Origin: Candidatus Shapirobacteria bacterium
GTDB taxonomy: Bacteria > Patescibacteriota > Microgenomatia > UBA12405
Assembly (NCBI GenBank): GCA_041659325.1
Contig: JBAZYN010000001.1
Location: forward strand, 430,819 to 494,818
Direction: 5' to 3'
DNA length: 64,000 bases
Part shown: positions 6,797-50,693 of the stretch, in pieces
Position numbering within the stretch: the first letter of the stretch is position 1
Layout: the number at the start of each line of letters is the position of its first letter
Position numbers and translations under genes: made by a program
Notes under the pieces: model-generated
The model's input: the letters and a program-made list of their open reading frames with translations, nothing else
Told to the model about the DNA's origin: nothing
The model's database searches: none

Positions 6797-7900
<1,104 letters not shown>

Positions 7901-9069: not shown

Positions 9070-10170
9070 TCACCTCCCAAACCACACTTCCATTTCATCA
9101 AAAACCGCATAGTTAAACGACACTTCCTGTCCCGGAAACCGCGCATTTTTACCCCAAATACAGGCTTTATTAACATCATCCCGCATTTGGCTAGAAATCC
9201 GTTTCAAGACATCATCAATAGTCTTTGTTTTTTTCATAATCAGCGGTTCTTTTTTATCACCCTCGGTATTTCTCTCATACCTCAGATATACCCGAACAAG
9301 TCCCAGCTCCCTCCAAATTTTTTCCTTTAATTCTTCCAGGCCAATCTCTTTATCCGCACTTAAAAATAATACTTCCCCGGTTTTTACTTTCGACTTTAGA
9401 CTTTCGACTTTAAAGTTATCAATTTTATTGATAATTCTCACTACCGGCATATATCTTCTGGATTTTGACAAGCCATCAATCAATACATCTACACTTTTGA
9501 TTTTTTCTCCAAACTGAATCAGAGCATTGTTATACCCCATTTCTTCGGCAATTTCCTCCACCAATTCTTTGTCAAAAGAATAATATGGATCAATAATTTG
9601 TATCGCTCCCTTATCAGTCCGGTTAATATGAATTTTGGGTGGTATCTGCCCCAATCTTATCCCCGATTTATAAAGTTCATTGGCCATAATATCCAGCCAC
9701 CCAATCCTTTTTACATCAGTCATTATCACCGCCAAGTCAGATGCTCTGATTACAGAAATCACTTTTTTCCCAAAACCTTTGTTTTCAGCCGCCCCCTCCA
9801 CAATACCGGGAAGATCCAAGATTTGAACTTTAACACCTTTATATTCCATCATTCCGGGGACCACGCCCAACGTAGTAAAATCATAATTTCCCACTTTCGA
9901 CTCAGCATTGGTCAGTTTATTGAGGAGTGTCGACTTTCCCACACTCGGTAGCCCCACCAAAACCACTGAAGCGTCACCGGAGTGTTTAATTGCATACCCT
10001 ACTCCTCCGCCTCCGCCTTTCCCCGACGAGCCCTGCAATTCATCCTGCAATTTAGCCATCTTGGCTTTCAAAAGTCCATGCAAGTGTTCCGTCCCTTTGT
10101 GGTATGGCGTGTCCCGAATCTCCTTCTCGATTCGAGACATCTTCATTTTTATTATTTCTTCTTTGGTCAT
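9070..10170 (-). CDS. DRG/Rbg-type Obg-family GTPase with C-terminal TGS domain
   Basis: An N-terminal helical region (TPYHKGTEHLHGLLKAKMAKL), G1 GLPSVGKST, G3 DLPG, then a TGS-like C-terminus. This architecture is typical of archaeal/eukaryotic DRG. Confidence 0.7.
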   Translation of the reverse strand: MTKEEIIKMKMSRIEKEIRDTPYHKGTEHLHGLLKAKMAKLQDELQGSSGKGGGGGVGYAIKHSGDASVVLVGLPSVGKSTLLNKLTNAESKVGNYDFTTLGVVPGMMEYKGVKVQILDLPGIVEGAAENKGFGKKVISVIRASDLAVIMTDVKRIGWLDIMANELYKSGIRLGQIPPKIHINRTDKGAIQIIDPYYSFDKELVEEIAEEMGYNNALIQFGEKIKSVDVLIDGLSKSRRYMPVVRIINKIDNFKVESLKSKVKTGEVLFLSADKEIGLEELKEKIWRELGLVRVYLRYERNTEGDKKEPLIMKKTKTIDDVLKRISSQMRDDVNKACIWGKNARFPGQEVSFNYAVFDEMEVWFGR

Positions 10171-31438: not shown

Positions 31439-31980
31439 TTTATCTTCACCTCCATATCAAAAGTCCATCCTTTTTCAGTTGAATACACCAACGAATTTAG
31501 CTTTGCCGACATAAAACCCTCAGACAAACCGTCGTTAACATCCCGAACAATTTCCTCCAGTGTATCTACCTCTTTCCAATCAGGCACCACCCCCGAAACA
31601 CTAAAAATTTTTTGGCTTTTAAGTTCATATTTGTCCAGGTTAATCACCGATGGAAACAAAGTAGTTACCGTTTGAAAAGCTTTCCCATACTCAAACCTTT
31701 TGTTCAATATTTCTCCCACAATTTTTGCCCGATATTTCAGTTGTTCACTGTTTAATACTGCATCAGAGATTCCCTGAAAATCTGTTACCGCTTTCTTATA
31801 TTTCTTTTCATCTGCCACTAGAGCCATTTTTGCCAAAAACCAAAACAAAAAAACAACCACCAACCCCAAAACCCAGAGCACCGAGATCAAAATCATTACC
31901 CTACTTACCTGGGACTTAACTTTGATTCTCGCCGCCTGAAATTTTGCCTGAGATGGCAACAGGTTTAAATCCGCGCTCAT
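31435..31980 (-). CDS. pilN: Type IV pilus assembly protein PilN
   Basis: The N-terminal DLNLLP signature, then a TM helix. Confidence 0.65.
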   Translation of the reverse strand: MSADLNLLPSQAKFQAARIKVKSQVSRVMILISVLWVLGLVVVFLFWFLAKMALVADEKKYKKAVTDFQGISDAVLNSEQLKYRAKIVGEILNKRFEYGKAFQTVTTLFPSVINLDKYELKSQKIFSVSGVVPDWKEVDTLEEIVRDVNDGLSEGFMSAKLNSLVYSTEKGWTFDMEVKIK

Positions 31981-33005
31981 ACCAACCCCCTTAATCCTAG
32001 CCCCACCGCCAGACTAAATCGACATCCCTCAGACGCCAAATTTATCGGTATCACTAGCTTAGTCGTGTCAATATGCAAAAACGGTTGGATAACCTGCACC
32101 TCCACTCCCAATAATCTGGTTATCTCTTCAGCCAATCCCGGCAAATTAGCCCCACCACCGCTTAAAACTAGCAAATCCACCGGCCGACCCTGCTCTTCCA
32201 GAAAAAGTGACATTGCTTTTCTGATCTCATCCGCCATGTTACTAAACACCGGCGCAATCGCATTTTTAATCTTGCCCTCCAGTTCCATTTCCTTCATCCC
32301 ATATGCTTTTTTGTATTCTTCCGCCGAGGCCATATCCAACCCCAAGTTAACCGAAATTGCCCTGGTTATAGACTCACCCCCCACCGACATTGATCGAGTA
32401 AAGGCAATATTCTTTTTGTTCAAGCTAACAATGTCAGAATACTTTTCTCCCATATCAATTAGCATTATCCCTTGCACGTTCGATACCGAGCTATTCAAAA
32501 CCCTCTTCATCGCCACCGCCGGAGACTCCAGTGCCAAAAGTTCCAATCCCGCAAATTTAAACAATTTAACATACGCCTGAATTAGTTCATTTCGAGCCGC
32601 AATTGCAAATACTGCCAATCTTCCGGCACTATCTTTTTCGACAATTTCATAATCTATCGACACCTGGTCAAGTGGGTAGGGGACAAAGGTCTCCGCCTCA
32701 AACTTCAACGCATCTCTAATTTCACTGTCTTTCAGTGGCGGTAGTCTAATCAATCGGCTGATTACTTCATCTTCCGGCAGACAAGCCACTACATTTCTGG
32801 CTTTTATTTTTAGATCAGACAACAGCAGTCTAATTGCGGCCACCACCTCCTCAACTGGCTTATTTTTAGTTGTACTCTTTATCCAGTCATAGTTGGGGGT
32901 TTTTGTCTCCCCGATAGATTCCAAAGACAACCCTGATTTATCTCCGCTTATCTGGACGACTTTTATCGAACCCATCCCGATATCCAAGCCAAAAAAATCA
33001 CTCAT
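31977..33005 (-). CDS. pilM: Type IV pilus assembly ATPase-fold protein PilM
   Basis: An actin-like fold (FGLDIGMGSIKVV), 342 aa. Confidence 0.8.
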   Translation of the reverse strand: MSDFFGLDIGMGSIKVVQISGDKSGLSLESIGETKTPNYDWIKSTTKNKPVEEVVAAIRLLLSDLKIKARNVVACLPEDEVISRLIRLPPLKDSEIRDALKFEAETFVPYPLDQVSIDYEIVEKDSAGRLAVFAIAARNELIQAYVKLFKFAGLELLALESPAVAMKRVLNSSVSNVQGIMLIDMGEKYSDIVSLNKKNIAFTRSMSVGGESITRAISVNLGLDMASAEEYKKAYGMKEMELEGKIKNAIAPVFSNMADEIRKAMSLFLEEQGRPVDLLVLSGGGANLPGLAEEITRLLGVEVQVIQPFLHIDTTKLVIPINLASEGCRFSLAVGLGLRGLV

Positions 33006-33859: not shown

Positions 33860-36526
33860 TTATCTTCCCTCCTTCCAGCCCGACAATACTTTTGTCAATT
33901 CTGCTGGCAAATTAAACATTAAATCCGATCGGTAGTTAACCAAAACTGCCGGTTTTGTGTTGTTTATTATCTTATCAGTATATCCTCTTGTTAAACTAAT
34001 ATCTCCGCCGGGAGTATAAATCACCCCGTTTATCACCAATTGCTCTGCCGAGACTCCTGGTGTCTCAAAGCCACCGTTTGCCAGAAATATCCCGTCCACC
34101 TGATTCACCGTCTCTTGGACTGTAATTTTACCCGAAACTACCACCATCAAAAACCCCACAGGATTTCTCACGATGTCCTCGTCAATCGAAAGATTCCCAT
34201 TCACAAACACCACCCCTGTTACTCCGGCTCCCAAATTACTCCAGACAGTGTTCCCCTCAGATACCACTGCCGGCCTCATTATCTTTCTAAAATAATCATA
34301 ATCGTATTTTTCTCCTATAACATTGGATTCCAGCCCCCAGTCGTGCACCTCACCATACTTACACAAACTGCCGCAACCCGAGCTGTTAGAAATAATCGGC
34401 GCCGCCACCAATCCATTACTACCGCCCAAGCCACCAATAGCGATTGCCGGAATACAAGTGGTGTCAATTGCGCAAGTCACCGGGATATTATCAAGAATGG
34501 ACACCATTGCCCCGATACCACCCGATGTCACCTGAAACCACGGCCCCTGGTCTGCTGCCGTCACATAGTCTACCTTTATCTTTGGCTCTGTTTGGTAAGG
34601 GTTAACCACCTGATTAGTTATGTTTAGCCTGGTTGCTGCCGGGCAATTTTCCAAAACCCTTTCCCCGTCATTCACATCCGTAATCTTTAGCAGTCCGCTC
34701 AATACCGGATCCGTCCCAAGTAGCTCAGGGTCAAAATCAGGTGCATATTGTTGCCCAAAAATTAAATGATTTGCATTATCACTGTGATAATCAGAATCAT
34801 TGTCCGCAGTCATTGTTCTGTTAGAAAATTTGTACAGGGAAGAAACATCTTCATACATCAGTCCGCCAAATCCTACACTGTCCGCAATCGGAATCGAATA
34901 TCCGGTATGAGGACAGACCGCCAATAGATCGGCGCTACTGTCATAAACAGTTCCGACTACCTCCACCACACAATCCCACACCTTAAATTGTCTATTCATT
35001 TCCATCCAACCGCCAACACCTGTACTCAACAGACCTCCCCAGGTATCCTCAGCATAAACAAAAAGATCATAGCCGTCAGTCGCGGCCGGCCAACCACTCA
35101 AATCATTAAAGGTTACTGCAAATGTCACTGTCTTATCACTTCCGTTGGTTGTAGCCGTCGATCCAACCGTTACGTTACCACTACGCAAACCGGTCACGCT
35201 TATCCCCGCCGTCATATCATAGTGCAAACTCAAATCAGTACCATCACCAAATCTTAGCTCTACTATCTGAATCTCATCATGAACCGGAGAGGTAGAGTTA
35301 TCAGGGTCGGTCACTGTCACATTAAATTTCACGATTCTCTCACCGGTTGCGGTAAAAAAAACGGGATCACATACATGGTTTCTAATTCCGGTAACAGGAA
35401 TCTCCGTCGGCGTCGGCGCCAGGGTAACCACTGCCGTCGGCTCTGCTGTTGGCACAACCACCGGATCCATACAGATAGCATATGTTTTCAAATCGGTTGG
35501 CCATTCCCTCATCCAATACAACTGCCTGTCAGCCAAATTTTGTTTACACCTCAATTGATAATTTGTCCCCCCCGTCAAGCTAAATTCCGCCGACTGAAAA
35601 GACATTGCCTTCCAACCCTCACCGGCGTCAATGTTAAAATCTACCGAACTACCTTCCGTCGAGATATCTACTGTTCCCATAGAATCGGTTACCTTACAGT
35701 CCAAATGGTTCGTAAACGATCCGCCCCTCTGGCTACCCGCCTTGACTAAAACTCCGTTAACAGTTCCGCTAAAAGAAGGAGTAAACGACATTGTCATCCA
35801 ATCATTCGATATAAAATTTACAGGACTCAAAGAAGCACTATCAAAAGAAACTCCCTGTGGATAAAATCCGGCATCCCCACAGGACGCGACAGTCGGTATC
35901 ACTGCCCCTGTCGGAGTTGGGGGTGGAGCACAGGCAGCGCAGCTATAACTTCCGCCACCATGTACATATTGACAACTAGCCGGCGACCCGGCACAACCCA
36001 TATGACAGCAATTTAATTCATATATCTCATTTCCCCAATCCTGAACACAGGTCGACGGGTCCGTTCTTACACCGCAGACACCACATGTACTGTCACACCC
36101 CGGATAAGTAGTCACCGGAAGGATACTGGTAGGTGTCGGAACGACTGTCGGCGGCGGTGCCGACGCCGAATACAGACAAGCGATAGAGCCATCTTGGTGA
36201 TTGTGGTAGACATAATGGTATCCGCCTCCGTCAAGTGTCACCACGTATCCATCGGTAAACATCAGTCCACATACCCCCGCACTTGGACACCCGCAGCATG
36301 TATCGTCAAACGTCTTTGCTACAGCCGCCCCAGTAATTGAAGCAATACTTACTCCCGTCCTACTGGCCATATTTGCCTTATCAGTCGCCAAAGCTGTCGC
36401 CGCACTAGCCAATACGGATCTAGGTGTGTACCAAAAAACCACAGAAAAAAACAAAACTGCCAATAAAGCTATAAAACCTCTCGAAAAATTCATTCCAACA
36501 TCAGAATACCATACGGAAATTTTCAC
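33860..36526 (-). CDS. Large secreted cysteine-rich modular protein (paralog family member A; putative pilus-associated adhesin)
   Basis: Signal peptide, CCGC module, CGVCGV...NCCHMGC...CAACAPP module, Ig-like middle, and a roughly 250-aa C-terminal domain ending WKEGR that is shared with the 37300-38562 gene. Confidence 0.6.
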   Translation of the reverse strand: MKISVWYSDVGMNFSRGFIALLAVLFFSVVFWYTPRSVLASAATALATDKANMASRTGVSIASITGAAVAKTFDDTCCGCPSAGVCGLMFTDGYVVTLDGGGYHYVYHNHQDGSIACLYSASAPPPTVVPTPTSILPVTTYPGCDSTCGVCGVRTDPSTCVQDWGNEIYELNCCHMGCAGSPASCQYVHGGGSYSCAACAPPPTPTGAVIPTVASCGDAGFYPQGVSFDSASLSPVNFISNDWMTMSFTPSFSGTVNGVLVKAGSQRGGSFTNHLDCKVTDSMGTVDISTEGSSVDFNIDAGEGWKAMSFQSAEFSLTGGTNYQLRCKQNLADRQLYWMREWPTDLKTYAICMDPVVVPTAEPTAVVTLAPTPTEIPVTGIRNHVCDPVFFTATGERIVKFNVTVTDPDNSTSPVHDEIQIVELRFGDGTDLSLHYDMTAGISVTGLRSGNVTVGSTATTNGSDKTVTFAVTFNDLSGWPAATDGYDLFVYAEDTWGGLLSTGVGGWMEMNRQFKVWDCVVEVVGTVYDSSADLLAVCPHTGYSIPIADSVGFGGLMYEDVSSLYKFSNRTMTADNDSDYHSDNANHLIFGQQYAPDFDPELLGTDPVLSGLLKITDVNDGERVLENCPAATRLNITNQVVNPYQTEPKIKVDYVTAADQGPWFQVTSGGIGAMVSILDNIPVTCAIDTTCIPAIAIGGLGGSNGLVAAPIISNSSGCGSLCKYGEVHDWGLESNVIGEKYDYDYFRKIMRPAVVSEGNTVWSNLGAGVTGVVFVNGNLSIDEDIVRNPVGFLMVVVSGKITVQETVNQVDGIFLANGGFETPGVSAEQLVINGVIYTPGGDISLTRGYTDKIINNTKPAVLVNYRSDLMFNLPAELTKVLSGWKEGR

Positions 36527-37299: not shown

Positions 37300-38562
37300 C
37301 TATCTCCCTTCCTTCCACTTCGACACGGAACTGGCCGATACTGAAGGCATTTTAAACATCATATCCGGCCGGTATCGGACCACTACTGCCGGACTGGTAT
37401 TATTTTTTGCTCCATTACTATATCCTCTTGATAATCTTATATCCCCACCGGGGGAATAGAGTACGCCGTTAATCACCAGTTGATTAGGCGACTTTCCATC
37501 TGCCTCAAAACCCAAATCGGCCACATACACCCCATTTATTTCTTTCACCTCTGTATCAACACTAATTTTTCCCGAAACTACCATCATAAAAAAACCTGAT
37601 TTCGGCATCATTTCTTCGGTAATATCCTCATCAATCACCAAATTCCCCTGAACGTATACAATTTCCTCTCCTTCGCTATATGGTCCAATATCATCTTCAT
37701 AACTAAGGCTACTTCCCCTAAAAACCTTCCCCACAGAATACTTTTGATAATAATTATCCAGAAAATACTGGTATCCATATCTCTCACCGATTATATATAG
37801 CTCCTCCCCCCAGTCTTTGGGAAACCCGTATTTACACTCACTTCCACAGTCAGTGTCATTGTCGATGTTTGGCGCTGCCACCAGTCCATTATCTCCACTT
37901 ACATCCCTTATTGTCATCGCAGCGACACATCCCATGCTCTTATCGTCAGCACACGTCTCGGGGATACTGTTTACAATTTCTATTCCGGCCGCTATGCCGC
38001 CGGCTGTCACTTGAAACCATGCCTCTTGATCTTCCGGTGTCGGAGTTGTTGGCACTCCGGGTACGAAGGTAGTCGCAGGGGAGGGGATTAAAGTTGGAAA
38101 GCCTCCCATCGGCGCCACCAACAAACAATATTCTCGACACTCCTCCGAATACAAGGCAACATTTTTACTGAAAGGCGGATTAGGGGCAGTTGCCTCCGGG
38201 AGTTCACTCTTACATCCGCCGTTTGAAATCCACAATCCGGCCGATGCGTTCATCAAACTTGTTGGTACCACCACCCTTCCTCTGCTCAAACAATCATATA
38301 TCGCCACTCTCCAGTCACATCTGCATCTAAAGACTTCGCTATTATAATAATCACTCGCTATCTCCCCCCCGGGATCACACTCCGTCCGTGGTGGTCTTAC
38401 ATCCGTCCAAAAGTCTTCGCATCCGATAGTGCTGGTCTCCCGGTAAACACAATCTGCAGTAAAAGGCCCCACCCCGGCCGGATAAGGGTAGCAAGAGCCG
38501 GCATAGGCATCTTTCAAAAAGCCACTAAACATCGACATCAAAATCAAGATAAAACCAATCAC
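37300..38562 (-). CDS. Secreted cysteine-rich protein (paralog family member C)
   Basis: Signal peptide. The C-terminal 250 aa align with the C-terminus of the 33860-36526 product (...LVINGVLYSPGGDIRLSRGY...WKEGR). Confidence 0.6.
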   Translation of the reverse strand: MIGFILILMSMFSGFLKDAYAGSCYPYPAGVGPFTADCVYRETSTIGCEDFWTDVRPPRTECDPGGEIASDYYNSEVFRCRCDWRVAIYDCLSRGRVVVPTSLMNASAGLWISNGGCKSELPEATAPNPPFSKNVALYSEECREYCLLVAPMGGFPTLIPSPATTFVPGVPTTPTPEDQEAWFQVTAGGIAAGIEIVNSIPETCADDKSMGCVAAMTIRDVSGDNGLVAAPNIDNDTDCGSECKYGFPKDWGEELYIIGERYGYQYFLDNYYQKYSVGKVFRGSSLSYEDDIGPYSEGEEIVYVQGNLVIDEDITEEMMPKSGFFMMVVSGKISVDTEVKEINGVYVADLGFEADGKSPNQLVINGVLYSPGGDIRLSRGYSNGAKNNTSPAVVVRYRPDMMFKMPSVSASSVSKWKEGR

Positions 38563-38580: not shown

Positions 38581-39936
38581 TTACTCAGTTCCTATTGTCA
38601 TCCCCACACTATTTGCCACTGTCAACCGTGCCATCGAGGGCGGACCATTTGGACCGACACATGTAATTCTATTTATTGCCCCAACACCCCAACTGCCGTC
38701 ACATGCGCTAATCGCGTGTACCCAAATATCATACGTCCCTCCCGGTTCAAAAGTATAATATTTGTAAGTCGTACTCACATCCTCACAAACATCTCCCGGG
38801 TTGGTTGGGGTACATGCACTGTTAAAAGAACTTGGCGAATCATCAACCCTCAAAGGATAATAGTCAGCCCCGGCCACCGGATTCCAGGATATTCTATTTC
38901 CGGCCACATCACAGACTAGTCCGGCCGGATTGGCAACCGGCTCACAGGCTGAATCAGGGATTGGTGTCGCCGACGGGGCACAAGCCGCGCAATTCCACGA
39001 CCCCCCTCCGTCTACATACATACAGACCAAGGGTGAATTCAGGCATTCCATGTGGCAACAATTTAATCCATAAACAGAATTCCCCCAATCTACATAACAA
39101 GACGATGCCGACACTTTTACCCCACAAACGCCACATGAAGCATCACATAGGGGATAGCCTGGTCCGGGAGTATTGGTGGGAGTAGGGGCTATTGTCCTCG
39201 TTGCTGTTGGCGCTCCCGGTACCGGAGTCCGGGTTGCCGTTGGCGTCGGAGTCCGGGTTGCTGTTGGCACTCCCGGTACCGGTGTCCGCGTTGCCGTTGG
39301 CGTCGGTGTCCGGGTTGCTGTTGGCACTCCCGGTACCGGTGTCCGCGTTGCCGTTGGCGTCGGTGTCCGGGTTGCTGCTAGCGTCGGTGTCCGGGTCGGA
39401 GTCGGAGTCACACAGGAAGCAGACGATATACAGCTCACCGTCCCGCTAAAGCTTTTCTTTCCGTCCCATCGGCTGCAATAAGTCCCATCATTCCTCAAAA
39501 TTTGATTTGAAGGACAGCTCAAACTCACGCTAGGGCCCGATACCCAACCCGTATTGCAAGCCCCCAATCCACACCAATTTAATCCTGACCACCCGCACGA
39601 TTCATTCCAAACACTGGTTTGGCAGGCAGGTGCGGGAGTCGACGTCGGCACCGCAACCGGGGTAGAAGTAGGCGGAGTTCCACAGCTTGTATTCTCTCCA
39701 TTACACTGATCACTTCCTTCACCGGAAACTGTTTTACAAACATAACTGCTGTTACAAGTCCGCCGGCAACAAGAATCGCTATTTGTATAATTACACCCCC
39801 CCGCAGGGGTACAACACGACATATTACAAACTCCATGACTACTGTCGCAATTACAAGCCCCCTGGGCAAAAGTAGGACGTGGCGAAAACAAAACGGTACT
39901 CAACAAAAACAATAAATACAAAAAAACTATTTTCAT
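38581..39936 (-). CDS. Secreted cysteine-rich protein with Thr/Pro tandem repeats (paralog family member D)
   Basis: Signal peptide. The module CDASCGVCGV...NCCHMEC...CAACAPS is shared with the 33860 gene. There are 3.5 copies of a 19-aa TRTPTPTATRTPVPGVPTA repeat. Confidence 0.6.
   Translation of the reverse strand: MKIVFLYLLFLLSTVLFSPRPTFAQGACNCDSSHGVCNMSCCTPAGGCNYTNSDSCCRRTCNSSYVCKTVSGEGSDQCNGENTSCGTPPTSTPVAVPTSTPAPACQTSVWNESCGWSGLNWCGLGACNTGWVSGPSVSLSCPSNQILRNDGTYCSRWDGKKSFSGTVSCISSASCVTPTPTRTPTLAATRTPTPTATRTPVPGVPTATRTPTPTATRTPVPGVPTATRTPTPTATRTPVPGAPTATRTIAPTPTNTPGPGYPLCDASCGVCGVKVSASSCYVDWGNSVYGLNCCHMECLNSPLVCMYVDGGGSWNCAACAPSATPIPDSACEPVANPAGLVCDVAGNRISWNPVAGADYYPLRVDDSPSSFNSACTPTNPGDVCEDVSTTYKYYTFEPGGTYDIWVHAISACDGSWGVGAINRITCVGPNGPPSMARLTVANSVGMTIGTE
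39186..39410. repeat. 57-bp tandem repeat (about 3.5 units) inside the CDS
   Basis: A direct repetition of GTTGCTGTTGGCACTCCCGGTACCGGTGTCCGCGTTGCCGTTGGCGTCGGTGTCCGG with a few substitutions. Confidence 0.85.
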
Positions 39937-39955
39937 ATGTTAGGGGCTATCCGAT

Positions 39956-40432
39956 TTATTTCTTAATTACTTTAACTTTATAATTATATTCTTTTGCTAG
40001 ACCTTTGACTGAATAAGGAAACTCCCCTAGCTGCTCAAAACTCCTGGTCCACTCCTCCCCGGGCAATATCGTCCTCGGCCCCATAAGTTCAAACTCTACC
40101 GCCACCATGCTATCGGTTCCGTTTCTAAAGGTAACAAAATCATGAAATCCCAAAATTCTGGACTGATCTTCGGCCGAAAGGCCGTTTTCGCCGATAACAA
40201 ACTCAAAAGTTTCCGCTTTTTTCGCCATCTCTTCTTGTTCTGGGGTATAAGTAGGTACTATCGCCTCCTTTTCTTTTGGGATAACTTGATTTCGGCTTTT
40301 ATTACCGATTCCACCCTCTGCAACATATCTCATCCCCACCGATCCGACCAACACCAACACGCCCAAGATAAAAAATACCAATCCCAACGAAACCTTCGCC
40401 GTAGCTCCTCTTTTAAACAAATTATCAATCAC
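39956..40432 (-). CDS. Hypothetical membrane-anchored protein
   Basis: An N-terminal TM helix. 158 aa. Confidence 0.4.
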   Translation of the reverse strand: MIDNLFKRGATAKVSLGLVFFILGVLVLVGSVGMRYVAEGGIGNKSRNQVIPKEKEAIVPTYTPEQEEMAKKAETFEFVIGENGLSAEDQSRILGFHDFVTFRNGTDSMVAVEFELMGPRTILPGEEWTRSFEQLGEFPYSVKGLAKEYNYKVKVIKK

Positions 40433-40466
40433 AACTAAAGATTAAAGTATCCCCGCACCTATGTCA

Positions 40467-40498
40467 ATCGAGGCGGGATCTTTCGATTCCCGCCTCGA
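40467..40498 (-). terminator. Perfect 11-bp-stem hairpin TCGAGGCGGGA-N10-TCCCGCCTCGA downstream of the 40524 gene
   Basis: It lies 26 nt after the stop. A near-identical copy (one mismatch) follows the 41528 gene at 41453-41482. Confidence 0.45.
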
Positions 40499-40523
40499 TT
40501 ATCTACTTTAAATTCAACTTATC

Positions 40524-41123
40524 TTACGGACGCCTTCGTCTTGGCGCTCTGACAACCGGTTTGGCTGGAGGATTTTCTACCATAGAATCCCCTACAAACG
40601 ATTCAGCTGCTCCACAGGATGGTTTTCCTCGCCACAGAGGAGTATCAAGCGGATATTCGGTCACTATCAGAAAAGTGCCGTCATCTAGCCTACCTAAAAT
40701 TGTCTCTGTCGGGAAGACTCCAGGTCCGTCACCAATCTTAACTGTCTCTGTCGCCGAGGATCTAGGATCACCGCCAACCCAACTGAGTCCGGGTCTTGGT
40801 TGCCACGGAGCAGATGGATATGTATCGTCGATTCTACTCACTCTCACGGCTACCCCGCACCTATTAATAGTCCAATCACCAGAACCATTGACACTATAAT
40901 TTTCCTGTATCGCTAGCTGTCTCTCTATGGGCAGTACCGGCAATACCACTCTGTTTTCCGTATCTCTGGACACACCCCCCTCTTCTGCCTTAGCAACACC
41001 ACTAACTGCAGCCCCACCAGCACCAAGTAATAATGTCGCCAACCCCACCCTGGCAACATATTCTACAAACCCAACATGTCTTTTAGCAGATCCTTCATTA
41101 TTTCTTCTAATATTTCTTTCCAT
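40524..41123 (-). CDS. Secreted protein, tandem paralog 1 (conserved 45-aa N-terminus, unique C-terminal domain)
   Basis: The N-terminus MERNIRRNNEGSAKRHVGFVEYVARVGLATLLLGAGGAAVSGVAKA is about 80% identical to the N-terminus of the 41528 gene product. The upstream region is duplicated. Confidence 0.55.
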   Translation of the reverse strand: MERNIRRNNEGSAKRHVGFVEYVARVGLATLLLGAGGAAVSGVAKAEEGGVSRDTENRVVLPVLPIERQLAIQENYSVNGSGDWTINRCGVAVRVSRIDDTYPSAPWQPRPGLSWVGGDPRSSATETVKIGDGPGVFPTETILGRLDDGTFLIVTEYPLDTPLWRGKPSCGAAESFVGDSMVENPPAKPVVRAPRRRRP

Positions 41124-41300
41124 TTATTTTTATTTAAAAAATAATTAATTAGCGAACAGACGTAATATAACAAATATTCTAGGACATGTCAATATCATAT
41201 TTACTCTATCCTTGCATACAATCAATTATATCAAAAAATTTAAAATATTCATTATAAAATATTATACACACCAATTACACACGCCAAAAATCACTCCTCC
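41124..41300. repeat. About 180-bp direct repeat (promoter/5'UTR), copy 1
   Basis: More than 90% identical to 42029-42205. Confidence 0.85.
41164..41192 (-). promoter_or_regulatory. Consensus sigma70-type promoter TTGACA-17-TATATT
   Basis: Read on the minus strand, about 45 nt upstream of the ATG. It lies inside the 180-bp direct repeat. Confidence 0.5.
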
Positions 41301-41527
41301 CATTCTAAAAAAATCAACCCTAAAGAAATTTTCGCCTCCCCCCTATCTCTTTTTTTATCAACACCGCCGCCCCCGTCCGAAAAACATAAAGATTAACTCC
41401 TAGTCACAAATAAAGACTAATGAATTACTTCTCGTATGTCAATCGAGGCGGGATCTTTCGATTCCCGCCTCAATTAATTACTTAAATTCAAACCTACTCT
41501 GCAAACCCCACTTGCATTGCAAACGAT

Positions 41528-42028
41528 TTACCTTGGTCCGCAAGTTGGTTCTCCCTGCGATAAATCAGTCCCACCCCTATATTCGATCACATATAATACG
41601 CCATCCTTTGTCATTGTCCCTACAGGTCTCCACTCATTGCCAAGGCGGCTCTTTCCTCCTGTAGCTTGCCACGGAGCATCCGGATAGTCGGGTGTTCTTG
41701 GGCCTTCACCTGGGACGGGAATCGGAGTCATTTGGGTACCTGTTCCACACTCGTCAACAAAAAAACGACCGGCATTACCATCTCTGGCTCTGACCATATA
41801 GTCTATTATTATTCCTAATCGTTCACCGAGAGATACTCTCGGCAATACCACTCCACTTTCCTTACCGGTTCTATACGCTTCACTAACCTCTGCCTGAGTA
41901 ACGCGACCAATAGCAGCCCCACCAGCACCAAGTAATAATGTCGCCAACCCCACCCTGGCAACATTTTCTACAAGCCCAACATGTCTTTTAACGGGTTCTT
42001 CATTATTTCTTACAATATTTCTTTCCAT
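41528..42028 (-). CDS. Secreted protein, tandem paralog 2
   Basis: The N-terminus MERNIVRNNEEPVKRHVGLVENVARVGLATLLLGAGGAAIGRVTQA, followed by a divergent C-terminal domain. Confidence 0.55.
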   Translation of the reverse strand: MERNIVRNNEEPVKRHVGLVENVARVGLATLLLGAGGAAIGRVTQAEVSEAYRTGKESGVVLPRVSLGERLGIIIDYMVRARDGNAGRFFVDECGTGTQMTPIPVPGEGPRTPDYPDAPWQATGGKSRLGNEWRPVGTMTKDGVLYVIEYRGGTDLSQGEPTCGPR

Positions 42029-42205
42029 TTATTTACTATTTAAAAAATAATTAATTAGCGAGCAACCGTAATATAACATATATTCTAGGACATATCAATA
42101 TCATATTTACTCTATCCTTGCATACAATCAATTATATCAAAAATATTAAAATATTCATTATAAAATATTATACACACCAATTACACACGCCAAAAATCAA
42201 TTTCT
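42029..42205. repeat. About 180-bp direct repeat, copy 2
   Basis: See 41124-41300. Confidence 0.85.
42070..42098 (-). promoter_or_regulatory. Sigma70-type promoter TTGATA-17-TATATT (duplicate)
   Basis: The same architecture as 41164-41192, in the second copy of the 180-bp repeat. Confidence 0.45.
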
Positions 42206-42772
42206 TATCTTTATTTCCGAGGAAAAGTATTTCGAAACAAAGTCACTCGGGCCACCGCCCGATAGGCCGGAGCTCAAATAAAATCCCACGCTCAAATCGA
42301 CCACTTTTCCTGTCGATGGGGAAGTCGTCCCGCTGATAAAATTCCCGCAACCGCTCACCTCCACTTCTTCGCCGCTCAGCCGAACGGTATTCGCCGACAC
42401 CGATGCAATTTGGCTATCTGCCGACTCCACACATTGAATTGTCGTCCCTATGCTCGACAAGGAAACCCAAGATTTATCCGCCGGGTCCAATTCGATTGTC
42501 TCTCCCGGAGCATTTATCACGTTTTTTCTGATTTCCGACAATACCCAAGCCCCATTCTGCTCCACCTTATCCGCCCAATTGATCCTGTTTTTCGCCTTAA
42601 AAGAATTAACCAAAACGGTAGTTATAGAAGTCAGGATAAACCCCATCACTGATACCACCACCACTATTTCAATCAAACTAAAACCCATCCTTTTAATCTC
42701 CCTTTCGTCAAAGGGAGATACCCCCACAATAGTGGGGGAGAGGGATTTTGCTTTTGACTCTTTTCTTCTCAT
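42197..42772 (-). CDS. Prepilin-like protein (class III signal, G|FSLIE)
   Basis: KRMGFSLIEIVVVVSVMGF. An R1 repeat copy lies in the putative leader-coding region, so the start could instead be the M directly before G. Confidence 0.65.
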   Translation of the reverse strand: MRRKESKAKSLSPTIVGVSPFDEREIKRMGFSLIEIVVVVSVMGFILTSITTVLVNSFKAKNRINWADKVEQNGAWVLSEIRKNVINAPGETIELDPADKSWVSLSSIGTTIQCVESADSQIASVSANTVRLSGEEVEVSGCGNFISGTTSPSTGKVVDLSVGFYLSSGLSGGGPSDFVSKYFSSEIKIRN

Positions 42773-43176
42773 ATCCTCGAAAATACCCTATTTAACTTAA
42801 GTATCTGCATTTCCTTTGCCGTCCATTGAACTGTTACCGTTACAAGAACACAAGACGGACACTCCACAATAGAGCTATCAGAATTGTTGAAAACAATTGT
42901 ATATGTATATCCCGGAAACTCTGTCAGTGTTTGCCATGTTGTCGTCGCATACACAAAGGGCGATTCAAAAAATCCCTCCGGGTCAGCTTCTCTGGCTTTC
43001 ATCATTTTCTCCATTACCACCTCCGCCATCCGGCCTGCCGTCTTTCGGTCAAAACTTCTTGTCTTTGTAGAAACCGAAGACACCAACAGCACCACCACCC
43101 CCGAAAGCACCAGTACCACTATTGCTACCGAAAATATTAAATCAACCAGACTTTGACCAAAATTTTTATTATTCAT
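42769..43176 (-). CDS. Minor pilin/pseudopilin-like protein (G|QSLVDL)
   Basis: MNNKNFGQSLVDLIFSVAIVVLVL, a class III-like signal with Asp in place of Glu5. Confidence 0.55.
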   Translation of the reverse strand: MNNKNFGQSLVDLIFSVAIVVLVLSGVVVLLVSSVSTKTRSFDRKTAGRMAEVVMEKMMKAREADPEGFFESPFVYATTTWQTLTEFPGYTYTIVFNNSDSSIVECPSCVLVTVTVQWTAKEMQILKLNRVFSRI

Positions 43177-43834: not shown

Positions 43835-44275
43835 TTACGGCTGTGTCACCCGATAGTTACAATTTCCGGTCGTACACGATACCGCAGTCGCAATCGTTGT
43901 TCCTGTCTCCATCCTGGCATATAGAAAATAGGTGTAATTAGTCTGCCGGTCATAAACATAGGTATCGCTACTCGGCCCAACCGGGTAAGCCGACAAAAAC
44001 CCTCCCGAAGTCAATACTGATATGCTTGAGTCATCAGGATATGTCGTCCCCACCTGTCTCACCACTTCCAGTGCCATTCTGATTCTCTCCAAATCGGCCT
44101 GCCTTCTCCCGTCCCTTGCCTTTCTATTCGTCGTTCCGAAACTCACCGTCGCAATCGCCGTAATTATTGCAATTATAGTTATCACCACAATCAATTCAAT
44201 CAAACTGAAACCTAGTTTTTTTGTAGTGCCCCTCCTTTCGTCAAAGGAGGGGGTAGGGGTAGATTTAATTCTCAT
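43835..44275 (-). CDS. Prepilin-like protein (G|FSLIEL) with 22-aa leader
   Basis: KKLGFSLIELIVVITIIAI. Part of the leader is encoded by an R1 repeat copy (PSFDERRG). Confidence 0.65.
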   Translation of the reverse strand: MRIKSTPTPSFDERRGTTKKLGFSLIELIVVITIIAIITAIATVSFGTTNRKARDGRRQADLERIRMALEVVRQVGTTYPDDSSISVLTSGGFLSAYPVGPSSDTYVYDRQTNYTYFLYARMETGTTIATAVSCTTGNCNYRVTQP

Positions 44276-45729: not shown

Positions 45730-46419
45730 TCACTCTCGACAACCCAACGCCCCCCACCATTCCAGTCCTCCTCCGGGGCAAAGATCAATCTGGCAGTCAG
45801 TACTTGGCGCCCAATAACAATTTGCCCCCGAGCAATTGGCCTGTTTCCAATTGCCTTCGTCCAGAACCCTACAGGCGTAGTTACAGATATCACCACAGGA
45901 TTCGGGATATACAGTTGTATCATACCAATTGGCATTTGGACTGGAAACTCCATAATTTACCGGCGAAGAGGTATATGCCCCTGCTCCCGATATACCCCCC
46001 CAGCCAACAGGAATATCCCGATCGGCCAAAAACTCTAAGTAAGCATACGCTCTATATTCATCCGGGCAGCTGCTACTGGAATCCACAATTATTTCATACG
46101 GGTCACCATCCGGATCGCACGGCCACGGAGTCAACCAGGGAGAAAATATAATTCCGCTATCACAATTTACCGGATTCTGTAATTCATCAACTTTCGCCTG
46201 GTTGGGATAGCATCCCTTGTCGTTGTAATATTCCTCAAACGCAGTCTTAATCCTCGACAAATCTTTTTTTCTCCTGGCATCCTTACCCTTATTAACCAGA
46301 GCAATTGGGTTAATAATCCCGATTATAATCACCGACATCAGGGCAATTATTGACATCACTATCAACAATTCCGTCAATGTAAAACCCGCAGACCAAATAG
46401 CATTCCCCTTCCTTCCCAT
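45730..46419 (-). CDS. Prepilin (G|FTLTELL)
   Basis: MGRKGNAIWSAGFTLTELLIVMSIIA. Confidence 0.75.
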   Translation of the reverse strand: MGRKGNAIWSAGFTLTELLIVMSIIALMSVIIIGIINPIALVNKGKDARRKKDLSRIKTAFEEYYNDKGCYPNQAKVDELQNPVNCDSGIIFSPWLTPWPCDPDGDPYEIIVDSSSSCPDEYRAYAYLEFLADRDIPVGWGGISGAGAYTSSPVNYGVSSPNANWYDTTVYPESCGDICNYACRVLDEGNWKQANCSGANCYWAPSTDCQIDLCPGGGLEWWGALGCRE

Positions 46420-46422: not shown

Positions 46423-47220
46423 TTACTCTAACATTTTTTGGACATAGAAACCAACGCTCCCGCTCCACCACCAGGCCACCAATGTCCCCAATATCAGAAA
46501 CGGACCAAATGGTATGACTGATTTTCTTTTTACCTTTTTTACCGCCATCAATACCAATCCCACTATCGCTCCCGACACAAACGCCACATAAAAAGCCAGT
46601 ACTGTCTTTTCGGGGCCTAGCAACAATCCCATAAACACCGCATACTTTACATCTCCCATCCCCATCCCTTTCCCCTTAGTTATCACGTGTAAAAACAGTA
46701 AAAATCCTGCCGCTCCAACCGCCGCTAATAAATAAGGGACTACATTTTTCTCATCAAAAAACACCCCGGCAAAGGCGATAACAATCAGTATTATCGTAGA
46801 AAAATCCGGCAATATCATGTATCTAAAATCAAACACCGCACTAAACACCAACATCGTGATTATTACCAACTCCAAAACAAAAAAAACGTTAAATTCGTAA
46901 TTTGAAATTCGTAATTCGTAGTTAATTAAAAATAATATCCCCATTGTAATTTCTACAATAGGGTAGGAGACCGGTAAACTTTTGGCACAACATCTGGTTT
47001 TTCCGCCCTGCGTCAGCCACGAAATTATTGGCACATTCTCAAACCACCTCAACTGTCTTCCGCAATAATCACAATAACTCCTTTCTTGAGACTTTAGGAC
47101 TTTTGGACTTTTAGACTTTAAGACTTTATATCGAACAGCAGTTCGATAAACTACCATATTCACAAAACTCCCAAAGCACGCCCCCAAGACAAAAATCGTT
47201 ATCAAAAGCAACATTTCCAT
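46423..47220 (-). CDS. pilD: Prepilin peptidase (A24 family)
   Basis: An N-terminal Cys tetrad (CFGSF...CDYC) and the conserved Asp-containing TM core. It contains in-frame octamer and heptamer repeat insertions. Confidence 0.8.
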   Translation of the reverse strand: MEMLLLITIFVLGACFGSFVNMVVYRTAVRYKVLKSKSPKVLKSQERSYCDYCGRQLRWFENVPIISWLTQGGKTRCCAKSLPVSYPIVEITMGILFLINYELRISNYEFNVFFVLELVIITMLVFSAVFDFRYMILPDFSTIILIVIAFAGVFFDEKNVVPYLLAAVGAAGFLLFLHVITKGKGMGMGDVKYAVFMGLLLGPEKTVLAFYVAFVSGAIVGLVLMAVKKVKRKSVIPFGPFLILGTLVAWWWSGSVGFYVQKMLE

Positions 47221-47224: not shown

Positions 47225-47580
47225 TATTGTACTAATACCCCTCCTTTCCTCAAGGGAGGGATTAAGGGTGGATTTTTGCCCCTCCGTCATTACGAGGAGC
47301 AGTTATATAAGCGACGTGGTAATCGTTACAGAATTAAAATAGTCGAGTTGTTTCAGGATTACGAAGCCTGTCCCGAGAAACGAGGTATCGTTTCTCCTCG
47401 CAATGACAAACATTCTAACCCTCCCTTCGTCGAGGGAGGGAATAAAAGGGTGGGTTTGGCTTGAGGGTAGATTTAGATTTATCCCTCCCTTTTCAAGGGA
47501 GGGAAGGGTGGGTTTAACCTAAAACCCCGCCTTTCGGCGGGGTTAAATTCGTAATTCGTAATTACTAATTCCTGCCTGCC
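47225..47580. repeat. Repeat-dense intergenic region: four R1-family hairpins, AATTCGT heptamer repeats and a roughly 130-nt closed stem-loop element
   Basis: Hairpins CCCTCC(C)-loop-GGGAGGG at 47238, 47419 and 47481, and CCCCGCC-TTTCG-GCGGGG at 47523. GTCATTACGAGGAG at 47289 pairs with CTCCTCGCAATGAC at 47393. Confidence 0.7.
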
Positions 47581-47605: not shown

Positions 47606-48328
47606 CTACGGCACACACTTAAATAAGGATGTTGCCGGTGCAAGAAACGTCCACACCGCCGGATCAGGGTACCCAGCTACAAAGTCGGCAGGTACCACCG
47701 GAACCAAGCTAAAACCTACCATGTTATTTGCCGAATCAACAGCAGCTTCCGGTTTATAAAGGACCGTCGCACTGGTTCTATTCGATTTCGCTTTCGGTAT
47801 ATAACAAACATAAATAGAATTATGCCCTGATGCTGCATCTTTTTTGTCAACATAAAGCAAGTTCATTCCCGCCAGGTTAAAATTAGGATTTCCGGGAGCC
47901 AGTGACGTATAGCCCTTGCTTAAAAATGAGTCTTTCAGTTCGTCAGTACTTATCAACAGCCCGGCATTATTGTACAAAGTACAATCATCATTTGGAGTCG
48001 ACGCGGCACCGCCGGTACAAAGGGCTGCCCCGGCCATAGTACTCCTTCCGAACCAGGCCGCATCTGAGGTGGTAATTGTCGCCGCACTATCAATATCAAC
48101 CCACGGATAAGTCTGCTTAACAGTGTAGTACCTCTCATAAGCGTTCATTACTTCTGCCGCATCATTTTGCACTGTCGAATCTTTGGCTTTGTTTGATTGC
48201 TCAATCGGGTTAATGGTCGCTAATACTGCCACCGACAAAATGGCAATCAAGGCAATCACTATCAAAAGTTCCACCAGAGTAAAACCTCCCTGCCCGGGGC
48301 TTTTTCTTATCATATTTTTCGCTATCAT
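47606..48328 (-). CDS. pilA: Type IV major pilin-like protein (G|FTLVELL)
   Basis: MIRKSPGQGGFTLVELLIVIALIAIL. It sits directly downstream of pilC. Confidence 0.75.
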   Translation of the reverse strand: MIAKNMIRKSPGQGGFTLVELLIVIALIAILSVAVLATINPIEQSNKAKDSTVQNDAAEVMNAYERYYTVKQTYPWVDIDSAATITTSDAAWFGRSTMAGAALCTGGAASTPNDDCTLYNNAGLLISTDELKDSFLSKGYTSLAPGNPNFNLAGMNLLYVDKKDAASGHNSIYVCYIPKAKSNRTSATVLYKPEAAVDSANNMVGFSLVPVVPADFVAGYPDPAVWTFLAPATSLFKCVP

Positions 48329-48417: not shown

Positions 48418-49629
48418 CTAGAAAGATGATGTCAAGTTATAGATAGGCATAATCACGGCAATTACCAAAAATCCCACCCCGACTCCTAGCACTATCATAA
48501 TCAACGGCTCAATTGCCGCCGTCAGGGACTTCACTGATTGCTCCGCCTCGGTGGAAAAATATTCTGCCACCCGAATCAACACTTCATCTAGCTTTCCGGT
48601 TGCTTCGCCTGTTGCCACCATTTGATTAACAATCATCGGAAATACCCCCGCGTCCTCAAAAGAATTGGAGATACTAAATCCTTTCTGCACTCTTTCCGAA
48701 ATGTCAATATACGCCCGGTTGTACACCTCGTTTCCTGCCACCTTGGCCACAATCTTTAGCGCATCGACCAGTGATATACCTGCCGACAACAGCATCGACA
48801 AAGTCCTTATCGTATCCGCCAAAATTGTCTTTTCAATCAACGGTCCCATAATCGGTGCTTTCAATTTCAAGGTATCCAGTTTGAAACGGAATTCTGCGTT
48901 TTTCATTCCGACTCTGTATGCCGACACCGCCCCCACGGCAATTATGGGAAAAAGATACCAATTTTTTGCCATCCCATTCGACACTGCCATCAAAATCTGT
49001 GTAACCATCGGCAGCTTTGATCCCATATCCGCATATAACCCCAAAAGTTTGGGGATAACAAAAATCATCATAATAAAAGCCACAATAATCATGCCTATTA
49101 CCACGATAATCGGATAAATCATTGCCCCTTTCACTTTTCCCTGAAACTCGTTTTGGTCCTCCAGTCCGTCCGCCAACTTGGTCAATATTTCCTGCAACAC
49201 TCCTCCCGACTCACCGGCATCAATCGAGGCCACATAAGCCTCACCAAAAACATCCTGATATTTCTTTAACGAATCACCCAAAGACTGCCCGCCCCGCACC
49301 ATCCCCAAGGTATATTCCAAAATATCAAACATCATCCCGTTTCCCGCCGTCTGATTTTTTAGAAGCGACAGGGCATCGGTCAGTGGTAAACCTGCCGTCA
49401 TCATCGTCGACAGTTGCCGGGTAAAAGTAGACACTTGTTTTAGCCCCACTTTCCCCAAAAATTTTTTTGAATATTCATTTAAAATGTTTGGTCTGTCCAT
49501 CTCCACCGACAGGGGAATTAGACCCGATCCTTTTACCGATTCGATCACTTGCACCCGATCATTTAATTCCAAAAACCCCTTGATTGTCTTGCCGCTCCAG
49601 TCTTTTGCCCTGTATAAAAACTTTGGCAT
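48418..49629 (-). CDS. pilC: Type IV pilus platform protein PilC (GspF family)
   Basis: Two GspF repeats and three TM segments. Confidence 0.85.
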   Translation of the reverse strand: MPKFLYRAKDWSGKTIKGFLELNDRVQVIESVKGSGLIPLSVEMDRPNILNEYSKKFLGKVGLKQVSTFTRQLSTMMTAGLPLTDALSLLKNQTAGNGMMFDILEYTLGMVRGGQSLGDSLKKYQDVFGEAYVASIDAGESGGVLQEILTKLADGLEDQNEFQGKVKGAMIYPIIVVIGMIIVAFIMMIFVIPKLLGLYADMGSKLPMVTQILMAVSNGMAKNWYLFPIIAVGAVSAYRVGMKNAEFRFKLDTLKLKAPIMGPLIEKTILADTIRTLSMLLSAGISLVDALKIVAKVAGNEVYNRAYIDISERVQKGFSISNSFEDAGVFPMIVNQMVATGEATGKLDEVLIRVAEYFSTEAEQSVKSLTAAIEPLIMIVLGVGVGFLVIAVIMPIYNLTSSF

Positions 49630-49631: not shown

Positions 49632-50693
49632 TTATGATTTCCTCAATCTGGTCTGCAATTCATCCGGTCGTAAACTATAACTCATCGCCACTTCCTCGGT
49701 CACCTTGCCCGTTTTTACCAATATAGCAAGTGATTGTTCCAGCGTTACCATCCCCAAATCCGATCCGGTCTGAATAATATTGTCGATCATAAAATTTTTC
49801 GACTCGCGGACAATATTTCTCACCGCCGGAGTAGCCACCAATATTTCAAACGCCGGAATCCGCCCGCCGTCAATTCCCGGAATCAGCCTCTCCGAAACCA
49901 CGGCTGAAATAACCGATGCCAACTGAACCCTAATTTGATCTTTTGATCCCTCCGGGAACACATCAATAATTCTGTCCATGCTTTGGGCTGCCGAATTAGT
50001 GTGCAGAGTAGAAAACACCAAATGGCCGGTTTCCGCAATTGTCAGGGCCGATGAAATAGACTCCAGGTCCCTCATTTCGCCGGCAAATACCACGTTTGGA
50101 TCCTGCCGAAGACAAGACTTTAGCGCCGCCTCAAAGCTCGAGGTGTCCGATCCCACTTCCCGCTGCGATATGGTTGCCTTGTCAGGCTTTATCAAATATT
50201 CTATCGGATCCTCGATGGTCACAATATGGCAATTTTTCTGGTGGTTAATTTCGTTCAAAATCGCTGCCACCGACGTTGACTTACCATGTCCTGTCGGTCC
50301 GGTCATCAAAACAAATCCCTGTTTCATATCGATAAAATTCCGGAAAAACATCGGTAGATTAAGTTTTTCAAAACTCGGAATTTCCGAAGACACCACCCGC
50401 AGGGAACAGGCAAGCGACCCCCTCTGATAATAAGCATTTACTCTAAACCTGGCCTCAACCGCGGCTAGCGAAAAATCAAGCTCTTTTTCCCGTACCAAAC
50501 GCTCGAATTGGCTTTCGGTCATTATCGACCGGATTAGCTCGTTCATTAACTTATCGTCGGAAATATCAAAGTTCCCGATATTGGTCAGCTCTCCGTCAAT
50601 CCTCAGCTTCGGGTGAGTCCCCACCAACAAATGGATATCCGATGCCTTATTAGCCACCGCCAAACTCAACAATTCTTTTAATTTTATATTCAT
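49632..50693 (-). CDS. pilT: Twitching-motility retraction ATPase PilT
   Basis: Walker A GPTGHGKST, the Asp box and the His box. 353 aa. Confidence 0.85.
   Translation of the reverse strand: MNIKLKELLSLAVANKASDIHLLVGTHPKLRIDGELTNIGNFDISDDKLMNELIRSIMTESQFERLVREKELDFSLAAVEARFRVNAYYQRGSLACSLRVVSSEIPSFEKLNLPMFFRNFIDMKQGFVLMTGPTGHGKSTSVAAILNEINHQKNCHIVTIEDPIEYLIKPDKATISQREVGSDTSSFEAALKSCLRQDPNVVFAGEMRDLESISSALTIAETGHLVFSTLHTNSAAQSMDRIIDVFPEGSKDQIRVQLASVISAVVSERLIPGIDGGRIPAFEILVATPAVRNIVRESKNFMIDNIIQTGSDLGMVTLEQSLAILVKTGKVTEEVAMSYSLRPDELQTRLRKS

Follow-up and report, generated by a model that had tools for sequence, protein, structure and literature searches.

Anatomy of the tandem gene pair

We analysed a window of 64,000 nt from the metagenome-assembled genome (MAG) GCA_041659325.1 of a Candidatus Shapirobacteria bacterium (JBAZYN010000001.1, positions 430,819–494,818 of a 573,898-bp contig). 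Inside a minus-strand type IV pilus cluster, delimited by Pfam scans, lie two adjacent genes for small proteins, hereafter gene A and gene B. Both open reading frames reported by the initial annotation of this stretch were recovered, co-oriented and on the minus strand, so that 'upstream' refers to higher coordinates. The two units, listed in the direction of transcription, contain the following features:

42029–42199, minus: non-coding 5′ block of B, 95% identical to 41124–41293; its start coincides with the stop codon of the preceding gene, the last minor pilin (42197–42772)
42070–42098, minus: promoter-like site of B, TTGATA-17-TATATT with a TG-extended −10 element (10/12 matches plus TG)
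41910–42199, minus: copy B of the putative recently homogenised 5′ module, which spans promoter, leader and codons 1–39; 271/289 identical to copy A
41528–42028, minus: gene B, 166 aa (NCBI MFA5828214.1, WC841_02550; annotated as hypothetical)
41891–42028, minus: signal-peptide coding part of B, codons 1–46, from inspection and alignment; cleavage predicted after TQA
41404–41496, minus: 3′ block of B, 81–84% identical to 40429–40521
41441–41475, minus: hairpin B, stem of 13 + 2 bp interrupted by a bulged A and capped by GAAA; one U·G pair on the sense strand
41294–41403, no strand: spacer between unit B and unit A, 110 nt, unique, with no second copy found in the window
41124–41293, minus: non-coding 5′ block of A, from direct-repeat search and alignment
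41164–41192, minus: promoter-like site of A, TTGACA-17-TATATT with a TG-extended −10 element (11/12 matches plus TG)
41005–41293, minus: putatively homogenised 5′ module, copy A, from divergence analysis and its identity to copy B
40524–41123, minus: gene A, 199 aa (NCBI MFA5828213.1, WC841_02545; annotated as hypothetical)
40986–41123, minus: signal-peptide coding part of A, codons 1–46, from inspection and alignment; cleavage predicted after AKA
40608–40955, minus: conserved domain of ~105–115 aa (A residues 57–172), common to B and to four distant relatives, P0003–P0006
40429–40521, minus: 3′ block of A, ending at the GTG start of the next gene (39956–40432)
40466–40500, minus: hairpin A, stem of 13 + 2 bp interrupted by a bulged A and capped by GAAA; not followed by a U-tract

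Direct-repeat search and MAFFT alignment of both units located three conserved stretches. The upstream blocks (41124–41293 and 42029–42199), which the initial annotation had given as ~180 bp and more than 90% identical, align over 171 columns with 8 mismatches and 1 gap (blastn E = 2e-73). The 5′ coding parts are 87–89% identical across 140–158 nt (blastn E = 1e-49), and the 3′ blocks align within the window at a blastn E of 1e-22. The proposed self-comparison of the region, run as a repeat and blastn search, returned two copies only in the 64-kb window, where BLAST found no third copy of any part of either unit at the DNA or protein level. All repeats are in direct orientation; inverted flanking repeats were not found. 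Small plus-strand open reading frames in the AT-rich blocks (41212–41403 and 42118–42336) were dismissed as TTG-started, low-complexity and without support, as was a G-quadruplex in the 110-nt spacer, whose G-runs, judged by eye, are too widely separated.

The promoter-like sites of A and B are the two best sigma-70-like matches in 39800–42900. Only four sites in the whole window match at 11/12 or better and three of these carry TG; the site of A belongs to both sets. The promoters had been described as identical consensus sequences; near-consensus sites are indeed present in both copies, but they are only near-identical, with B reading TTGATA. From the end of the −10 hexamer to the ATG is 40 nt, and the leader is AT-rich and ~33–40 nt long. 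Folding found no significant structure in the 5′ untranslated region (UTR), and no Shine–Dalgarno sequence was seen by eye in the leader. Homopolymer runs are absent from the promoter spacers, and the longest run in the leader is T6. On their match to the consensus, both sites are putatively active.

A hairpin follows each gene, with a stem of 13 + 2 bp, 7–8 GC pairs and a GAAA (GNRA-type) loop. A shared palindrome had been noted at this position; it stands after both genes, but with a 13-bp rather than an 11-bp stem and with one substitution in B. The palindrome core has five matches at one mismatch or fewer in the window (0.85 expected), four of which build the two hairpins, the fifth, at 7094, being a lone arm with one mismatch. 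In a stem-loop scan, these were the longest GC-rich stem-loops of the window. Hairpin A, in an 84-nt fold, has z = −4.9, and both strands fold well below shuffled controls (z ~ −5). Between copies the hairpin is identical at 34/35 positions, compared with 41/61 in its flanks (p = 5.6e-4), and its single substitution yields a U·G pair on the sense strand and a C·A mismatch on the opposite strand. The substitution tolerated on the sense strand, the folding scores and the conservation of the hairpin together argue for a role at the RNA level in the orientation of the genes. The hairpin shares GC-richness with Rho-independent terminators; because no U-tract follows the stem, it is not a canonical intrinsic terminator, and a terminator scan did not report either site. 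Rfam, searched at permissive E across 39800–42900, gave zero matches, and the exact hairpin sequence had none in a collection of metagenome contigs from which the source contig is evidently absent. The major pilin gene, too, is followed by hairpins that lack a full U-tract (47482–47544), and one of these has a GNRA loop. A function as terminator and/or 3′ stabiliser is what we infer from these properties.

Mosaic divergence of two probably exported paralogues

Proteins A and B align end to end (40% identity, E = 1e-30). The initial annotation had taken the C-termini to be swapped domains that diverge completely. This is not the case: the mature parts align collinearly at 29% identity (E = 2e-9) and have in common the motifs VVLP, YPxAPWQ and EY..T.L..G.P.CG and two conserved cysteines. 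The shared N-terminus of 45 aa proved real, with 76% identity over residues 1 to 45–47 and full identity over residues 23–39; the complete divergence said to follow it did not. By inspection, this N-terminus comprises a long charged n-region with K/R, a Gly/Ala-rich h-region, VGLATLLLGAGGAA(V/I), and small-x-small sites for cleavage, in A at AKA/EE and in B at TQA/EV. It reads as a putative signal peptide, perhaps of Sec type, and A and B are probably exported. The Tat (twin-arginine translocation) models PF10518 and TIGR01409 match neither A nor B. A lipobox was not found, Cys being absent from residues 1–88 of A and the corresponding part of B, and the prepilin motif PF07963 (N_methyl) has no match in either protein, whereas eight neighbouring genes match it, two of them below the curated cut-off.

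Divergence between the units is sharply uneven. The ~290-nt 5′ module (A 41005–41293, B 41910–42199) is 94% identical, at 271/289 positions. Within it, synonymous divergence (dS) across codons 1–39 is 0.07 and non-synonymous divergence (dN) 0.08, and the upstream non-coding DNA is ~5% divergent. Identity then decays gradually across codons 40–62 (dS 0.53) to a mature part with dS of 1.05–1.16 and dN of 0.62–0.65. At the DNA level the centre is 55% identical at aligned columns, with a further 147 gap columns, and the difference in identity from the 5′ module is strong (Fisher p = 2e-29). The units are therefore mosaic: homology extends over the whole unit, while segments differ sharply in divergence, synonymous and non-coding sites included. 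Judged by these substitutions, the two copies of the 5′ module diverged from a common ancestor far more recently than the two centres did. Most simply, the gene would have duplicated in tandem long ago and the 5′ module would have undergone gene conversion in recent times, the 3′ block being either older or functionally constrained; the direction of conversion is likewise something that we infer.

Purifying selection could in principle have produced such a pattern on its own, keeping the 5′ module and the hairpin near-identical as regulator sites, leader RNA and signal peptide with no recent recombination. The better conservation of the hairpin than of its flanks, the identity of signal-peptide residues 23–39 and the enrichment of strong promoters at the same place in related genomes (5 compared with 0.43 expected; see below) would all fit. 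Against it, dN is about equal to dS in codons 1–39, where 6/7 differing codons alter the residue, and recent shared ancestry explains such conservation better than purifying selection does. Furthermore, 171 nt of AT-rich non-coding DNA, spacer positions included, are 95% identical while mature synonymous sites are saturated; with synonymous and non-coding sites as conserved as replacement sites, purifying selection on signal peptide or promoter cannot be the main cause. Neither an Rfam family nor significant 5′ UTR structure was found. We regard selection alone as very unlikely.

To place the proteins, we searched Pfam, NCBIfam, PHROGs and PADLOC, none of which returned a family for A, B or the next gene (39956–40432). 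A word-indexed search with A across 5.8 billion protein clusters returned A and B alone; when 1.84 billion representatives were scanned exhaustively with HMMER, a single distant relative, P0003 (E = 1.8e-4), came to light in addition. The extra cassettes sharing this N-terminus that the initial annotation anticipated appeared in neither search, and further cassettes were absent among 5.8 to 15 billion proteins. Seeding with P0003 yielded three more proteins, P0004–P0006, and a domain of ~105 aa is common to all four relatives. At least P0003, P0005 and P0006 carry a canonical SRRxFLK twin-arginine motif and P0004 reads PRRGFLK; P0003, the one relative scanned with the Tat models, matched TIGR01409 (E = 4.9e-4, above its cut-off), with the motif SRRDFLK. 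A profile of the shared domain brought no additional relatives, and there were 0 matches each for the A/B profile in genome contigs and for the six-sequence profile in metagenome contigs and in viral contigs. The structure prediction proposed for the C-terminal part, run on A, gave an AlphaFold2 model of residues 57–172 with a predicted local distance difference test score (pLDDT) mostly of 80–90, dipping at residues 134–140. No fold match was found, and the shared domain has no relative in Pfam, the PDB or viral structures. With relatives that share the domain and a pLDDT of 80–90, A and B look like real proteins; the domain is predicted to be a previously undescribed alpha+beta domain of ~105–115 aa that defines a small new family.

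Taken together, we favour a reading in which A and B are two active, separately transcribed paralogues with an old duplication, a recently converted expression and export module and old, distinct mature domains, and we put its probability at roughly 60%. An old tandem duplication of a small exported-protein gene would have given rise to A and B, whose mature domains then diverged down to 29% identity. Intragenomic gene conversion would lately have homogenised the ~290-nt 5′ module between the copies, encompassing a near-consensus sigma-70 promoter with extended −10, the AT-rich leader and, from the signal peptide, its n- and h-regions. Owing to this shared module, both proteins would be made and exported under common signals for transcription, translation initiation and export. 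The 3′ hairpin would act on sense-strand RNA, as terminator and/or stabiliser, to close each transcription unit. A tandem duplication with shared promoter, signal peptide and 3′ hairpin beside pilin genes, and a product that is probably exported, had been proposed from the outset, and these points are supported.

Several points weigh against this reading. The low dS of codons 1–39 is built on just 2 synonymous and 7 non-synonymous differences. An outgroup or sister genome with A/B was not found in the collections and related loci searched. The relatives bear canonical Tat motifs, whereas neither A nor B is recognised by a Tat model. The hairpins are not followed by the U-tract expected of a canonical intrinsic terminator, the tails being GACAUAGG and GACAUACG. 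Finally, the conserved block continues for ~110 nt upstream of the −35 hexamer, beyond any element that we assigned.

The pilus cluster and the same slot in related genomes

The pair occupies a slot with minor pilins on one side and large Cys-rich proteins and pilMNO on the other. Along the minus strand the cluster reads as follows, with Pil proteins and the pilin at 47606–48328 assigned by Pfam scan:

50700–52445, minus: PilB
49632–50693, minus: PilT
48418–49629, minus: PilC
47606–48328, minus: pilin
46423–47220, minus: PilD
45730–46419 down to 42197–42772, minus: eight further pilin-like genes, two below the Pfam cut-off; 42769–43176 without an N_methyl match
39956–40432, minus: small membrane-anchored protein, the gene after A
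38581–39936, 37300–38562 and 33860–36526, minus: large Cys- and Pro/Thr-rich proteins
31977–33005, minus: PilM, followed by PilN/O-like genes

No recombinase or integrase is among the cluster genes scanned with Pfam; each is either a pilus gene or without a Pfam match. Tandem Pro/Thr-rich coding repeats (TRTPTPTATRTPVPG...) are present at 39193–39377, in the gene for the 451-aa Cys-rich protein, which lies just downstream of A and B. The 888-aa (33860–36526) and 420-aa (37300–38562) proteins share a C-terminal domain of ~240 aa, which is conserved beside pilin clusters in other Shapirobacteria and for which no Pfam or NCBIfam match was found.

To examine the slot elsewhere, we used PilD as a query and obtained 80 loci, ~28 of them from Shapirobacteria and Microgenomates relatives (PilD identity up to 63%). 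Across these 80 loci, tblastn of A and B found no homologue in the Shapirobacteria relatives, and blastn of the 5′ and 3′ blocks gave noise only. Eighteen related loci extend at least 1.5 kb past the orthologue of the last minor pilin, and the content of their slot varies, comprising Tat-signal proteins, lipoproteins and small exported proteins; the slot is usually followed by a gene homologous to that of the large Cys-rich protein, or else immediately by pilM. Counted over 19 loci (the 18 plus L017), promoters matching at 11/12 or better are over-represented within 700 nt downstream of the last pilin, with 5 observed and 0.43 expected (Poisson 9e-5; for example L003 7591, L019 15386 and L028 15195). 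These near-consensus promoters (11–12 of 12) precede variable exported-protein genes, several with RRxFLK Tat motifs.

One related locus, L010 (CAZOQV010000025.1), has a tandem pair of small exported-protein genes in the same slot, at 5786–6202 (with a lipobox) and 6830–7504. They are unrelated to A/B, and their mutual identity is 30% over 56 aa. The region 5308–7671 is mosaic, with 5′ blocks of ~445 nt at 90% identity, coding parts at 48% with 258 gap columns, and 3′ blocks at 80% that contain an 85-nt core at 96.5%. Its promoters, TTGAC(T/A)-17-TATATT with TG, are of the same type as those of A/B, and a long 5′ UTR hairpin is conserved. From these alignments, the pair of L010 is an independent parallel of the mosaic pattern in the same slot.

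These loci bear on a second explanation, in which the flanks are the resident sequence and one divergent centre has its origin in a different strain or lineage. This centre would have entered by homologous recombination within the conserved 5′ and 3′ modules, the incoming DNA having perhaps been taken up via the adjacent pilus. The modules would then be recombination handles for population-level cassette replacement. Such an import would account for conserved modules on both sides of a saturated centre, for the same layout with unrelated genes in the slot of L010 and for the variable slot content of the 18 loci. By contrast, the collections searched yielded no additional allele or cassette in which these flanks or the N-terminus recur, and the two centres are homologous to one another, as resident paralogues would be. 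The gradual decay over codons 40–62 (dS 0.53) is also more readily explained by nested conversion tracts than by a single clean replacement. We consider import unlikely, although it is the foremost competitor of duplication followed by conversion.

A broader proposal, slightly less probable still, is that the slot after the last minor pilin in Shapirobacteria pilus clusters is a dedicated expression site. It would supply a strong promoter together with a leader for export and an RNA module at the 3′ end, and payload genes in it would be duplicated, diversified and exchanged by flank recombination. If true, this would be a simple, recombinase-free cassette system in episymbiotic bacteria of the candidate phyla radiation (CPR), with the pairs of the window and of L010 as two instances, and its payloads would be exported and possibly host-contact proteins.

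The same data speak to the quality of the assembly, as an assembler could have joined two strain alleles of one gene in tandem. The genome is a MAG, each protein is known from one contig only, and conserved flanks around a divergent centre resemble a strain bubble. Yet between the 3′ block of B and the 5′ block of A lies a unique 110-nt spacer, a link that is unexpected in a simple allelic bubble; the flank copies differ by 5–19%, the pair is embedded in a 574-kb contig, and the independent assembly of L010 has the same kind of tandem arrangement. Mis-assembly is therefore highly improbable.

Under the preferred reading, of duplication and conversion, the mosaic would be a clear case of segment-limited concerted evolution in a reduced genome, one that recurs at the slot in one other lineage, and it raises the hypothesis of a shared expression and export module with a variable payload. 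The genomes of CPR bacteria such as Shapirobacteria are tiny, and these organisms are considered to rely on pili and surface proteins for contact with other cells. A duplicated gene for a probably exported protein, with strong promoter-like sites, in a pilus cluster is a reasonable candidate for host interaction or a pilus-accessory role. A weak hint of a functional link between the A/B family and the large-protein domain comes from the locus L001, where the relative P0004 sits two genes upstream of a 1033-aa protein whose C-terminal domain (L001 4091–4891) matches that of the 888-aa and 420-aa proteins of the window (E = 8e-8).

Several further repeats were observed at these loci and in the window. 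On the short contig of L001, the genes flanking P0004 (6–233 and 1264–1791) share a 78% identical 3′ part encoding ...MIAIYY...QNSNFKEEDW.IEG.DSY, which suggests an alternating tandem array. In L022, two pilin paralogues share a 171-nt block at 90% identity (7512–7682 and 9403–9573) that covers the upstream region and the first codons, so that segmental homogenisation of 5′ ends may also affect pilin genes. In the window, a palindromic repeat family, CCCTCCYTY-N4-RARGGAGGG, has 4 pattern matches (0.01 expected), at 8000–8021, 44230–44251, 47239–47260 and 47419–47440, with a variant at 47482–47504 recovered by the stem-loop scan. A radical-SAM (UPF0004) gene contains one copy and the leader-coding part of a pilin gene another; three are in the intergenic region between the major pilin gene and PilD, at least two of them preceded by CCACCCTT. 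The repeat pairs a Shine–Dalgarno-like AAGGAGG with CCTCC. A 112-nt direct repeat of 80% identity (21–132 and 1827–1938) lies near tRNA genes at the start of the window. GC skew on the plus strand is negative in every 2-kb bin (near zero at 2001–4000), mostly ~ −0.2 to −0.39, independently of gene strand, genes being on the plus strand at ~3–30 kb and on the minus strand at 30–52 kb.

Comparison with known systems

The vsp, vlp and vsa families of Mycoplasma are clustered genes that combine a highly conserved 5′ UTR and signal peptide with divergent mature regions. They vary by site-specific inversion or by slippage of promoter homopolymers, and they are lipoproteins with internal repeats and many copies; A/B show none of these features. 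The initial annotation had likened the pair to a cassette system for alternative or variable proteins, and its units could be alternative cassettes of surface or secreted proteins switched by recombination in a programmed manner. The conserved promoter and signal peptide with variable mature parts recall Mycoplasma vsp/vlp and Borrelia UHB/erp (PMC7002432), and the pair lies within a pilus and adhesin locus. That likening does not hold at the level of the units, since there are two copies only, each complete with its own promoter and start codon, and no silent or extra copy was found in the window or among the predicted proteins searched. Recombination between direct repeats would delete rather than invert sequence, and neither a recombinase or integrase among the scanned cluster genes, nor a homopolymer tract in the promoter spacers, nor a lipobox was found. 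Switching is thus improbable, at about the level of selection acting alone or marginally above it. The lack of a lipobox Cys, of inverted repeats, of a recombinase among the genes scanned and of a switch-type tract led us to reject a phase-variable lipoprotein family as well.

Like integron cassettes, A and B are short open reading frames each followed by an imperfect palindrome. An integron array was rejected, as no integrase was found among the genes scanned and each unit has its own near-consensus promoter. An attC site was rejected too: the near-perfect 13-bp stem is without attC architecture, and a GTTRRRY-like heptamer upstream of hairpin A is not conserved in B.

In Neisseria pilE/pilS, a conserved 3′ repeat stands downstream of each copy and gene conversion occurs between copies. 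A/B similarly lie beside pilus genes with a 3′ repeat after each copy. Unlike pilS copies, which are silent pilins without promoter or 5′ end, A and B have promoter-like sites and no prepilin motif, and the conserved 5′ end is precisely what pilS lacks. Identity as type IV pilins or pseudopilins was discarded in the absence of a PF07963 match.

The lpl cluster of Staphylococcus aureus consists of tandem exported paralogues in which recombination at conserved segments leads to mosaic conservation, and the unit that evolves takes in the ends of neighbouring genes together with the intergenic region between them (Tsuru and Kobayashi 2008, PMC2568036). A/B are likewise tandem paralogues of probably exported proteins with mosaic conservation. 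In lpl, the conserved segment is central and the ends are variable, with up to about ten copies that encode lipoproteins; in A/B, by contrast, the ends are conserved and the centre varies.

A related layout is that of the UHB (upstream homology box)/Erp (OspE/F-related) genes of Borrelia burgdorferi, in which recombination is considered to spread a shared 5′ module. In these paralogues, a near-identical upstream promoter region and leader peptide precede mature proteins that differ (PMC7002432, citing Marconi 1996 and Akins 1999). A/B show the same combination of shared promoter region and leader with different mature parts. Erp proteins, however, are lipoproteins present in many copies on many cp32 prophage plasmids, whereas A/B are two chromosomal tandem copies without a lipobox whose mature parts are still homologous.

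A/B resemble these systems only as a case of segmental concerted evolution; the defining features of the Borrelia, Mycoplasma and S. aureus families, namely lipoproteins, many copies and a switch element, do not apply, nor do those of integron cassettes or pilE/pilS. The pattern of a shared promoter and leader with different mature parts is already well known from several of them, and the evolutionary mechanism is a familiar one; what is new is the protein family and its location in a CPR pilus cluster.

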